DNA of 64,000 nt from Hormiphora californensis (GCA_020137815.1 CM035357.1:558001-622000); one strand, 5' to 3'; positions 3,001 to 62,810 are shown, counted from the first letter of the stretch. Made by a program: numbers and translations. The notes: generated from the letters alone by a model not told the origin.

Positions 3001-6000
3001 CTCCCCTTGACAGCATCGAACTCTGTCAGGACTGCACGTTGCTCAGAGGATAGGGTGGATTTCCGTCGTGAGGAGCGGAGTTTCCGCCGGACTGGTGGTG
3101 GAGAGGTTAGGGAGAGGGCAGCGAAGGGTGCATCAAGGGGTGATGAAGGGGATAGGAATGGGCTGGATGGGATGGTTGGAGGAATGTTGAGGGGAGGGAG
3201 AGTAGGTCGGTTCATCCGGGTTGGAGGGTTGAGAAGGGGTCTGTTCATCCGGAGTGGAGGGTTGAGGAGGGGTCTGTTCATCCGGGTTGGAGGGTTGAGG
3301 AGGGGGCTGTTCATCCGGGTTGGAGGGTTGAGGAGGGGGCTGATATCAGGACTGGAGCTAGAGGAGATGGAGCCACAGTGGATACAGGGTGGTTCAGGTA
3401 GGGTGAGGTGTCGTGTAGCAAGAGGGAGTAGACCTTCAGGTAGGGAAGGTAGTGCCTGAGGGAGGATAGCAGAGGGATGTTTTGCAGGTAGGGAAGGTAG
3501 TGGCTGAGGAAGGATAGCAGAGGGGTGTTTTGGAGGAAGGATGGTAGATGGCTGTAGTCCAGGAAAGGAAGGTAGTGGCTCAGTGGACTGGTTAGCAGGA
3601 AGCCGCTCCGGTAGATAAGTTGGTGGTGAGAGCTGTTTTGTAGGTAGATAGATTGGCGGAGAGGGAAGGTAGGCAATGTTGAGCGGGTCCTCCTCTTCCT
3701 CGTAGCAGTCGCTGTAGCCAGTGTAATATTCTGATACGGGAGAGATGGGAGGGGCGGATGGAGGATTGGAAGGGGAGGATGGAGATGATGATTGGGGGAA
3801 GTAGGCTGGGGATTCCAACTCAGGAGTACCAGGTGGAGAGGTAGGAGGAGTCCCAGGTGGGGAGGTAGGAGGAGAGTGAGGTGGGGAGGATGGTTCTGTT
3901 GAAGGAAGAGAGGAGTCCACATCCATGTGGAGGACGGGTGTAGGTCGTCGGAGGAAAGTCCAGAGATTGCAGTTGGAAGGCATGGTTGGGGATAGTTTGT
4001 TGGAGACCAGGACCTGCTTTTATACCCCCTCTCCCAGGGTTAGATGAGACAGGCATGTGGGTAGAGAGATGAGACCTGGTGTTATTATTGACTGGGTCTA
4101 GTCTCACTCTTAGCGCTAAAATGGTCTATGTGATACCAATCTGTGACAAGCGATAATCGGTCTGATATGTGACACCTAATCGGGGCCTTGTCTTACGATA
4201 CGTGACACCACCCTCTATTCTCTAATCGGTTGCTCGTTCCACGATACGTGACACGAGATAATCGGTGACTCACCGCTGGTTTGTCTCTCTGATCGGTCAT
4301 GTGATCTGATAGTATCCAAAAAATCACCGGAACTTTGAACCATCACACTCCCGAATTCCACTAAACCTTCACCCCCAATAATAACATTTAATCCAACCCT
4401 CAGAAAAGTTCGGATCGACCTGTGAACCCTCCGACAAGTTCATGAAGGAAGCTTTGAAGACTGGTGTTGTAGACTACGTTATGGACTGGGTAGTTACTAA
4501 ATCACAGCGGCAACTACAACAGAAAAGCGCGGGAAAGAAGGGCAGTAAGATAAAGGGTGAGAGTAAACTGGACGATGCAAAAGATGCTGGAACTTCTAGG
4601 AGCAAGGTAAATTATTGATGGGAGTATTATTGATCATTTTAGCCCAACCTTTTAGTTATTTATCATGAATATCTTGTCCCTAGTGTTTCGAACTGTTATC
4701 CCCTCAGGACTGCACCCTAACAAGTCAACTCCCCTCAGGACTGTACCCTAATCCTAACAGAGGGAGACTCCGCCAAGACCTTTGCTGTGTCAGGGCTGGC
4801 TGTTGTTGGAAAGGAAAAGTATGGAGTCTTCCCACTGAGGGGTAAAATGTTGAATGTCCGGGAGGCCTCCCATAAACAGGTGATACAGAGTAGGAAATAT
4901 ATTTTGTGTTTCTCTTGGATAGTTTTATTGTCATCTTATTCAAGAAAACACGGTGACACACAACTTGTTCGTTCATTCTCCCGAGATGGTCGAGAGATAG
5001 ATAGAGAAAGATATTGAGAGAGGGAGAGAGAGTTCTCACCTCATTACTCTCTCAGATTATGGAGAATGCCGAGTTAACAAGTATAGTTAAGATCCTGGGG
5101 CTGAAGTATAACAAGAAATATCAGACTGACGCTGATATAGCGACACTGAGATACGGGAAGATAATGATCATGGCAGATCAGGATGTGGTGAGTCAATTAA
5201 TTAATTAAGTAATTAGTGTGTTAATTAATTAATTAGTGGGTTAATTGGGGGGGGGACATGTTAATTGTTAATAAATCACCTCTTTTTTTCGATTTTGTTA
5301 ATTAACGTTAATTAACAAAATTAACAAAATTAACAAATGCTAAAAGACTGTTCTTATTGGTCGATAATACGACTTTAACTGGTTTAATTTTATAGTTTAA
5401 TGAATTATCTAACACATATATACCCAAACAAGGCCTTTTCCGATAACCAAAGTCCGACATACAGGTTTTTTGGCTCAAAATCGATAAAATTCCAAAAGTT
5501 ACAAATATTTCAATTTAGCGTATAAAATCTCACTTAAACGTAATTTTTAAATTAGTAATCGATTCTTTGAACTTAATAAGATGATGTACAACGTTTCTGT
5601 TGAAAAAAGAAATAAAATTTTCCCAAAATCAATTTTTTGGTCAAGGATTGAAAATTTGCTTCGCTACAAATCCTTGTGTTTTTTTAGAAAAATAGATTTT
5701 TGGGATATTTTTCGTTTTAAGGTAAATTCATGAGTCTTATTTAGTTTTTAGGGTGCGAAAATGTGGATTAGGCTCATTTGACTTCAATTGCGGTTTAGTT
5801 TGGCTAGTATTTATTAACATTAACAAAATGGAATAAATCGCTGTAGAAAAGCCGTAGTTGAGGTAGTAGGGGTATGTAAATCGTAAAGAATGAACAACTT
5901 TGCTCGCAGAACAAGTGTTAAATACTAAAAATACGTGCTAAAGGGGATTTAGATGGCATAAATGGCATTTGTTAACGTTTGTTAACTTTTTGTTAATTTT

Positions 6001-60600: not shown

Positions 60601-62810
60601 GATAAAGAGATAAGAGGTGATACAAGGGGGGGGGGACAAACCCTGAGAGGGATAATAGAGGTGATACAAGGGGGACAGACCCTGATAAAGGGATAAGAGG
60701 TGATACAAGGGGGACAGACCCTGGTAAAGGGATAAGAGGTGATACAAGGGGGACAGACCCTGATAAAGGGATAAGAGGTGATACAAGGGGGACAGACCCT
60801 GGGAGGGATAAGAGGTGATACAAGGGGGACAGACCCTGATAAAGGGATAAGAGGTGATACAAGGGGGACAGACCCTGATAAAGGGATAATAGAGGTGATA
60901 CAAGGGGGACAGACCCTGATAAAGGGATAAGAGGTGATACAAGGGGGACAGACCCTGATAAAGGGATAAGAGGTGATACAAGGGGGACAGACCCTGATAA
61001 AGGGATAAGAGGTGATACAAGGGGGACAGACCCTGATAAGAGGGGATAAGAGGTGGTACAAGGCCCAAGGGGGACAAACCCTGATAAAGGGATAAGAGGT
61101 TATACAAGGGGGACAGATCCTGGAAGGGATAAGAGGTGATACAAGGGGGACAGACCCTGGTAAAGGGATAATAGGTGATACAAGGGGGACAGACCCTGAT
61201 AAAGGAATAATAGAGGTGATACGAGGGGGACAGACCCTGGAAGGGATAAGAGGTGATACAAGGGGGACAGACCCTGGTAAAGGGATAATAGGTGATACAA
61301 GGGGGACAGACCCTGATAAAGGGATAAGAGGTGATACAAGGGAGACAGACCCTGATAAAGGGATAAGAGGTGATACAAGGGAGACAGACCCTGATAAAGG
61401 GATAAGAGGTGATACAAGGGGGACAGACCCTGGAAGGGATAAGAGGTGATACAAGGGGGGACAGACCCTGGAAGGGATAAGAGGTGATACAAAGGGGACA
61501 GACCCTGGTAAAGGGATAAGAGGTGATACAAGGGGGGACAGACCTGATAAAGGGATAAGAGAGGTGATACAAGGTGGACAGACCCTGGTAAAGGGATAAG
61601 AGGTGATACAAGGGGGACAGACCCTGATAAAGGAATAAGAGGTGATACAAGGGGGACAGACCCTGATAAAGGGATAAGAGGTGATACAAGGGGGGACAGA
61701 CCCTGATAAAGGGATAAGAGGTGATACAAGGGGGACAGACCCTGATAAAGGGATAAGAGGTGATACAAGGGGGACAGACCCTGATAAAGGGATAAGAGGT
61801 GATACAAGGGGGACAGACCCTGATAAAGGGATAAGAGGTGATACAAGGGGGACAGAACCTGATAAAGGGATAAGAGGTGATACAAGGGGGACAGTCCCTG
61901 ATAAAGGGATAAGAGGTGATACAAGGGGGACAGGCCCTGATAAAGGGATAAGAGGTGATACAAGGGGGACAGACCCTGATAAAGGGATAAGAGGTGATAC
62001 AAGGGGGACAGACCCTGATAAAGGGATAAGAGATGATACAAGGGGGACAGACCCTGGAAGGGATAAGAGAGGTGATACAAGGGGGACAGACCCTGATAAA
62101 GGGATAAGAGGTGATACAAGGGGGACAGACCCTGATAAAGGGATAAGAGGTGATACAAGGGGGACAGACCCTGATAAAGGGATAAGAGGTGATACGAGGG
62201 GGACAGACCCTGATAAAGGGATGAGAGGTGATACGAGGGGGACAGACCCTGGTAAAGGGATAAGAGGTGATACAAGGGGGACAGACCCTGGAAGGGATAA
62301 GAGGTGATACAAGGGGGACAGACCCTGATAAAGGTATAAGAGGTGATACAAGGGGGACAGACCCTGATAAAGGGATAAGAGGTGATACAAGGGGGACAGA
62401 CCCTGATAAAGGGATAAGAGGTGATACAAGGGGGACAGACCCTGATAAAGGGATAATAGAGGTGATACAAGGGGGGACAGACCCTGATAAAGGGATAAGA
62501 GGTGATACAAGGGGGACAGACCCTGATAAAGGGATAAGAGGTGATACAAGGGGGACAGACCCTGATAAAGGGATAATAGAGGTGATACAAGGGGGACAGA
62601 CCCTGGAAGGGATAAGAGGTGATACGAGGGGGACAGACCCTGATAAAGGGATGATAGAGGTGATACAAGGGGGACAGACCCTGATAAAGGGATAAGAGGT
62701 GATACAAGGGGGACAGACCCTGATAAAGGGATAAGAGGTGATACAAGGGGGACAGACCCTGATAAAGGGATAAGAGGTGATACAAGGGGGACAGATCCTG
62801 GAAGGATATG
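57667..62810 (-). repeat. 39-bp satellite (~130 copies) derived from the CERK-like exon acceptor
   Basis: The minus-strand unit cttatccctttatcag|ggtctgtcccccttgtatcacct mirrors the real junction atatcctcccag|ggtctctccccc at 57664. Confidence 0.92.

Follow-up and report, generated by a model that had tools for sequence, protein, structure and literature searches.

The window analysed here is a 64,000-nt stretch of DNA from Hormiphora californensis (GCA_020137815.1, CM035357.1:558001-622000), and all coordinates below are positions within it. Exons were placed by coordinates for TOP2, a RanBP2-type zinc-finger gene, an Sm/LSM gene, GINS1, a minus-strand gene and a CERK-like gene, with two putative exons modelled for the minus-strand gene and two exons for the CERK-like gene. 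Single-exon scans gave Pfam matches for 6 of 11 exons, of which zinc finger, LSM and Sld5 exceeded the curated cut-off and TOP2, YegS_C and CERK_C fell short of it; PF00641 matched the last exon of the zinc-finger gene and PF05916 exon 3 of GINS1. From these matches, together with known motifs, we take the genes to be TOP2, GINS1 and CERK. A protein search with one TOP2 exon returned 23 matches at 41-50% identity, the named ones from insects, flatworms and a nematode, and when metagenomes were scanned with this exon, 80 loci matched, none above 60% identity over the best segment, none from a close relative and none entering the analysis. Pfam and Atlas searches with an exon of the minus-strand gene gave no match. 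TOP2, the zinc-finger gene, the Sm/LSM gene and GINS1 (22882-31327) share one strand with gaps of 290-670 nt between them, and two of the start codons are closely preceded by acceptor-like sites; an operon-like or trans-spliced organisation is a possibility. Intron 1 of the Sm/LSM gene may harbour a small antisense gene (27380-28020).

The 92 annotated junctions, which comprise 78 distinct and 14 allelic ones, were scanned for nearby copies spanning each junction, and a separate repeat finder was run blind to the annotation. The blind finder identified 46 short-range repeat loci in the window, and none in any of three local shuffles of its first 33 kb. Junction-spanning copies were found at 9 of the 78 distinct splice junctions, five acceptors and four donors, so that both intron boundaries are represented. 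Six of the nine belong to a single gene, TOP2, where they affect the acceptors of exons 10, 12, 14 and 15 and the donors of exons 13 and 17 (Table 1). The copied units run head-to-tail, every copy lies on the intron side, and the AG or GT is intact in nearly all of them, as had been claimed in an earlier note on this DNA. The same note had counted at least 10 tandem repeats that straddle junctions; nine distinct ones stand, while its 11 coordinate ranges amount to ten junctions, with GINS1 as a borderline case.

Table 1. Genes, junction-associated arrays and related features in the window.
Feature	Position	Strand	Remarks
TOP2 gene, 28 exons	76..22882	+	exons 17-23 present twice; Pfam PF00521 on one exon, E 4e-4, below cut-off
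TOP2 exon 10 acceptor, two-copy near-tandem duplication	4699..4751	+	true site 4739, one decoy 31 nt upstream; missed by TRF
TOP2 exon 12 acceptor, mirage array	7669..8476	+	true site 8447; 7 decoys with 30 exon bases each
TOP2 43-nt array, purely intronic	8999..9216	+	stops 26 nt before exon 13; no straddling
TOP2 exon 13 donor, 33-nt mirage array	9312..9499	+	true site 9338; 4 decoy GT
TOP2 exon 14 acceptor, 33-41-nt mirage array	9605..9824	+	true site 9809; 5 decoy AG
TOP2 exon 15 acceptor, 44-nt mirage array	10165..10553	+	true site 10540; 8 decoy AG; polymorphic
TOP2 exon 17 donor, likely allele A	12880..13916	+	single decoy at +851, then a 66-nt intronic sub-array
Join between the exon 17-23 copies	16250..16990	.	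homopolymer-rich, low-quality-looking
TOP2 exon 17 donor, likely allele B	18728..19260	+	decoys at +126, +256 and +288; two partial donor copies
RanBP2-type zinc-finger gene, 13-nt array	23643..23702	+	putative donor 23652; 2 decoy copies
GINS1 exon 4 acceptor, two-copy duplication	30646..30696	+	true site 30693; mostly intronic; borderline
Minus-strand gene, 38-nt array	33051..33230	-	putative donor 33209; 4 decoy GT
CERK-like acceptor, 5.1-kb satellite, mainly 39-nt units	57652..62816	-	true site 57664

The repeat units include poly-C, TC and GGGGT tracts, and the array at the exon 12 acceptor of TOP2 is interspersed with a TC microsatellite. By direct comparison, the outermost copies at the TOP2 exon 12 and CERK-like arrays differ from the inner ones. 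The arrays account for 311 of the 470 nt of TOP2 intron 13 and for 356 of the 504 nt of intron 14, and these introns would measure 159 and 148 nt without them, near the usual basal intron size in the window of about 160 nt. The suggestion that such arrays offer a route to intron growth is thus borne out by two introns that have become two- to three-fold longer. At the donor of exon 12, a 6-nt repeat (8560-8577) provides two in-frame GT options, at 8565 and 8571.

Outside TOP2, the CERK-like satellite contains about 117-128 junction copies, depending on the threshold; about 118 of its junctions are acceptor-like, and 32 distinct units occur. Two further intronic arrays in this gene, of 33 nt (56115-57150) and 25 nt (57424-57540), start 7-10 nt from CERK-like donors and do not cross them. 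The GINS1 repeat is degenerate, shares a single exact exon base (three of the first four) and was missed by both finders, and it is a borderline case of a junction-spanning repeat. It is uncertain which copy of the zinc-finger donor is used; by inspection, the decoy at +26 could restore the frame via a second acceptor at 25567.

The earlier note had further emphasized a consistent polarity, with the functional site apparently always in the copy nearest the exon. The reading frame suggests that the exon-proximal copy is indeed the one used as splice site, with the zinc-finger donor and the minus-strand gene as uncertain cases. The polarity itself, however, is not a separate signal, since it is dictated by geometry. 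A unit at an acceptor consists of the end of the intron and the start of the exon, so that the full exon follows the last copy, and the situation is mirrored at donors; a tandem duplication across a junction therefore in every case keeps the outermost copy next to the intact exon. Because the choice of the exon-proximal copy alone keeps the protein, this arrangement is expected of any array that survives, and we do not count polarity as evidence in its own right.

TOP2 exons 17-23 occur twice within 12355-21000. Between the two copies there are 66 differences over 950 exon bases (about 7%), with 61 synonymous and 2 non-synonymous codons, and their introns diverge by 4-15%, in addition to insertions present in one copy only. 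Contigs from run X2 matched each copy without differences, at depths of 116 and 134, and the depth of single-haplotype contigs elsewhere was 109-186; these depth bins were drawn from a comparison over 8945-23000 that is dominated by mobile-element contigs. Pairs of X2 contigs elsewhere in TOP2 are about 6% apart (10/160 and 16/247). At the join between the copies, 36% of the bases are in runs of at least five, as compared to 4% elsewhere, and the two copies together would shift the TOP2 frame. The two copies are likely to represent two alleles assembled in tandem, that is, a false duplication in a region of very high heterozygosity, and a true tandem duplication was set aside as less likely. 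The arrays at 12880-13790 and 18728-19080 were accordingly not accepted as independent events, and are counted as one junction on two likely alleles. In copy A, a G-rich tract and a 640-nt insertion part the decoy from the donor, and the two are not in tandem. Apparent single-base frameshifts in TOP2 exons 12 (8520-8530) and 25 (21640-21670) are likely assembly indels.

Sequencing contigs were checked for three of the TOP2 arrays, at the exon 13 donor and at the acceptors of exons 14 and 15. In the independent sample S2, contigs cover exon 13 with the first decoy donor and extend into the exon 14 array, where the start of the array and unit variants are seen. The exon 15 array is skipped by one S2 haplotype, in which a contig joins 10170 to 10522 and continues into unique exon 15 sequence (the short side of the joint is 66 letters), and another S2 contig covers one exon 15 decoy and the true site. 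The checked TOP2 arrays are polymorphic minisatellites and not assembly errors. Haplotypes differ in the presence or absence of the exon 15 acceptor array, and in one versus three decoys at the exon 17 donor. With the exon 15 acceptor present with and without its eight decoys on different haplotypes, 3' splice-site choice and buffering by nonsense decay could be tested between matched alleles.

A related organism, here called B, is about 10% diverged in exons, and the comparison rests on only three contigs. One of these crosses intron 13 in about 170 nt, close to the 159 nt that separate the innermost decoys here, and none of the three matches the arrays of the window. The organism B contig breaks at the intron 13 donor, and a B-specific array at that site may have escaped notice. 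A contig from organism B is also longer by about 158 letters within TOP2 exon 14 (9877-9881), with an insert bounded by a 5-nt match ending in AG, which makes it a candidate for an intron present in B and absent from the window.

The arrays are mirage minisatellites, a type of repeat already known, and the window provides a dense fresh example. Their units span the exon-intron boundary, many AG or GT signals are kept, both boundaries are involved and array length is unstable between haplotypes. In amphioxus, mirages have been described in Adh3, the globin genes BflGb6 and BflGb9, troponin C and PGBD5, where RT-PCR indicated undisturbed splicing (PMC3087553, PMC3902484). The amphioxus arrays likewise consist of tandem copies of the intron-exon boundary at either end of the intron, with units of tens of bases, mostly preserved AG or GT, several arrays per gene and copy numbers that vary between haplotypes. 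The window differs in that it comes from another lineage, with six junctions affected in one essential gene and one array of more than 100 copies, and in that normal splicing, shown by RT-PCR in amphioxus, is here suggested by sequence.

Likewise, in the 37-bp VNTR in intron 7 of human F7 the first unit spans the exon-intron border and is followed by identical pseudo-donors, of which the most upstream donor is used, in line with scanning from 5' to 3' for the first site; junction repeats in 6-16, CBS intron 13, lamin B2 and PDGF are cited alongside, and the discussion mentions that duplicated sites behaved in opposite ways in early experiments (PMC1557585). The donor arrays of the window have the same layout, with a first unit over the border and pseudo-donors behind it, and here too the exon-adjacent donor is probably used. 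F7, in the sections of that paper cited here, concerns donors only, whereas five of the nine window arrays are at acceptors, and scanning from 5' to 3' cannot explain why upstream acceptor decoys would be skipped. A parallel for acceptors is the human CBS 844ins68 allele, a 68-bp duplication of an intron/exon junction in which the distal copy is favoured and normal mRNA is produced (PMC2630376), although CBS carries a single extra copy in a genome with long introns. Finally, in ATP2A1 an intron was gained via duplication of an exonic AGGT site (PMC3265369). That case resembles ours in being a short intragenic duplication with splice signals, but there the duplication was internal to an exon and created a new intron, whereas the window arrays lengthen existing introns.

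We favor the hypothesis, at a probability of roughly 70%, that the arrays are products of ordinary local duplication that are tolerated where they happen to cross an exon-intron border. The arrays would begin as short duplications aided by microhomology, and would then expand and contract via slippage or unequal exchange, as the allele differences and unit variants suggest. They may persist because splicing stays with the copy adjoining the intact exon, and the rare use of a decoy is predicted to be cleared by nonsense-mediated decay, with exon definition and nonsense decay as the proposed basis for the tolerance. At two acceptor arrays the intron flank matches the last bases of the copied exon part, over 7 nt and 8 nt, as slippage or microhomology-aided repair would leave it, although partial end copies could mimic these matches. 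With basal introns of the size seen here, geometry alone is expected to place a third or more of tolerated duplications of 30-70 nt across a junction.

The coding consequences of decoy use are largely consistent with such clearing. Use of a decoy would lead to a stop or a frameshift in 35 of 35 cases outside the CERK-like array and in 86 of 117 cases within it; the remaining 31 of the 117 CERK-like decoys would leave the frame open, which is a point against the favored hypothesis. Selection for in-frame decoys was considered and rejected, as none is in frame outside the CERK-like array. On a small local matrix built from 33 sites, many decoys equal or outscore the true site, and all eight at exon 15 and all five at exon 14 score at least as well. 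The first decoy acceptor in intron 14 would yield an intron of typical length (148 nt), and the skipping of such decoys counts against our preferred explanation. There is nevertheless no need for a spliceosome unusually able to ignore decoys, which the earlier note had proposed as one option, since human F7 and CBS and the amphioxus genes behave alike.

One alternative is that the mutational process is itself biased to splice junctions and initiates duplications there at a higher rate than in the rest of the intron, for example if polypyrimidine tracts, G-rich donor flanks or transcription-splicing pause sites are prone to breaks or template switches. We compared the number of straddling repeats with a null of uniform duplicate placement matched for unit length, using 27 entries in 38 introns. 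These were derived from the 46 loci by merging 31 of them over alleles, array halves and palindrome arms, and dropping 15 (two exonic in-frame repeats, one insert in allele B and 12 loci outside annotated introns). Over all intron DNA, nine straddlers were observed against 3.5 expected (P 0.003), and with mobile and nested DNA removed, using intervals drawn by hand, 9 of 17 against 5.1 (P 0.03). The excess was less pronounced for units of at least 20 nt (8 of 15, 5.0 expected, P 0.07), when intron length was limited to 200 nt (9, 6.3 expected, P 0.11) and with the two uncertain genes excluded (7 of 15 against 4.7, P 0.15), and a stricter overlap rule gave P values of 0.001-0.09. A modest excess is hence present in every null (1.4-2.6-fold, P 0.003-0.15), in one window that was chosen for looking odd.

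Furthermore, all six TOP2 cases fall within junctions 17-32 of the 54 in that gene (P about 0.005 in a post hoc test), and this clustering and the residual excess are points against uniform duplication. Of the ten intronic arrays outside mobile DNA that do not straddle a junction, six are within 40 nt of one, and the poly-C, TC and GGGGT tracts of the units would fit the proposed bias as well. However, in 160-nt introns everything is close to a junction, significance is lost under the stricter nulls, and mobile insertions also sit in the middle of TOP2 beside the clustered arrays, which makes a regional effect possible. The junction-centred mutation process suggested in the earlier note is neither shown nor excluded by these numbers, and we regard a biased origin as rather unlikely. 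Much the same holds for a bolder scenario, in which junction-biased duplication is combined with a routine bypassing, in essential genes, of as many as about 100 upstream acceptors of equal strength, and polymorphic mirages are a main engine of intron growth and a natural test of 3' splice-site choice; this is a tentative idea that we would not expect to hold. We found no genome-wide test of mirage enrichment at junctions in the literature searched.

Another alternative is that the decoys are used productively, in recursive splicing, in regulated nonsense decay or in the birth of new introns. The intact AG or GT in nearly all copies and a branch-point-like motif in 6 of 7 units at exon 12 and 7 of 8 units at exon 15 might be taken to favor such a role, but intact signals are also expected of young copies. 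A recursive splice site is an AG directly followed by a donor (AG|GT). The decoys at the exon 14 acceptor do read AG|GT, yet this is the case at only 1 of 6 acceptor arrays as compared to 15 of 33 annotated acceptors, which leaves the recursive splicing envisaged in the earlier note unsupported. Intron gain from mirages has been put forward as a hypothesis by Ebner et al. (PMC3087553, PMC3902484). The gene models of the window contain no exon split by an array and no array-made intron, all copies being inside introns, and the earlier suggestion of intron gain is likewise unsupported. The arrays are moreover polymorphic and not common to organism B, and we consider productive use very improbable. 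Weakest of all is the explanation that the arrays are assembly artefacts, a concern raised in the earlier note and largely refuted for the three arrays tested: the assembly does contain what is probably a false duplication of exons 17-23, together with a join of low quality and apparent frameshifts in two exons, but at all three arrays the exon-plus-decoy junctions are covered by contigs of an independent sample, and the units carry substitutions, with 32 distinct units in the CERK-like array.

In practical terms, gene predictions in this region will be led astray by the junction arrays and by the duplicated alleles. The window is also rich in mobile DNA. Many high-copy palindromic insertions, foldback or MITE-like, were observed at 10762-12009, 13003-13645, 15036-15762, 29789-30271 and elsewhere, and the one at 10762-12009 appears to be missing from an S2 haplotype, as judged from a loose contig end at 10698. 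Open frames at 23762-24840 and 43870-46720 presumably encode LINE-like reverse transcriptases, as judged by motif, and one of them lies in intron 2 of the zinc-finger gene. Related long open frames on the minus strand, 82-97% alike, were found at 36900-40300 and 49000-51900, with retroelement-like DNA between them.
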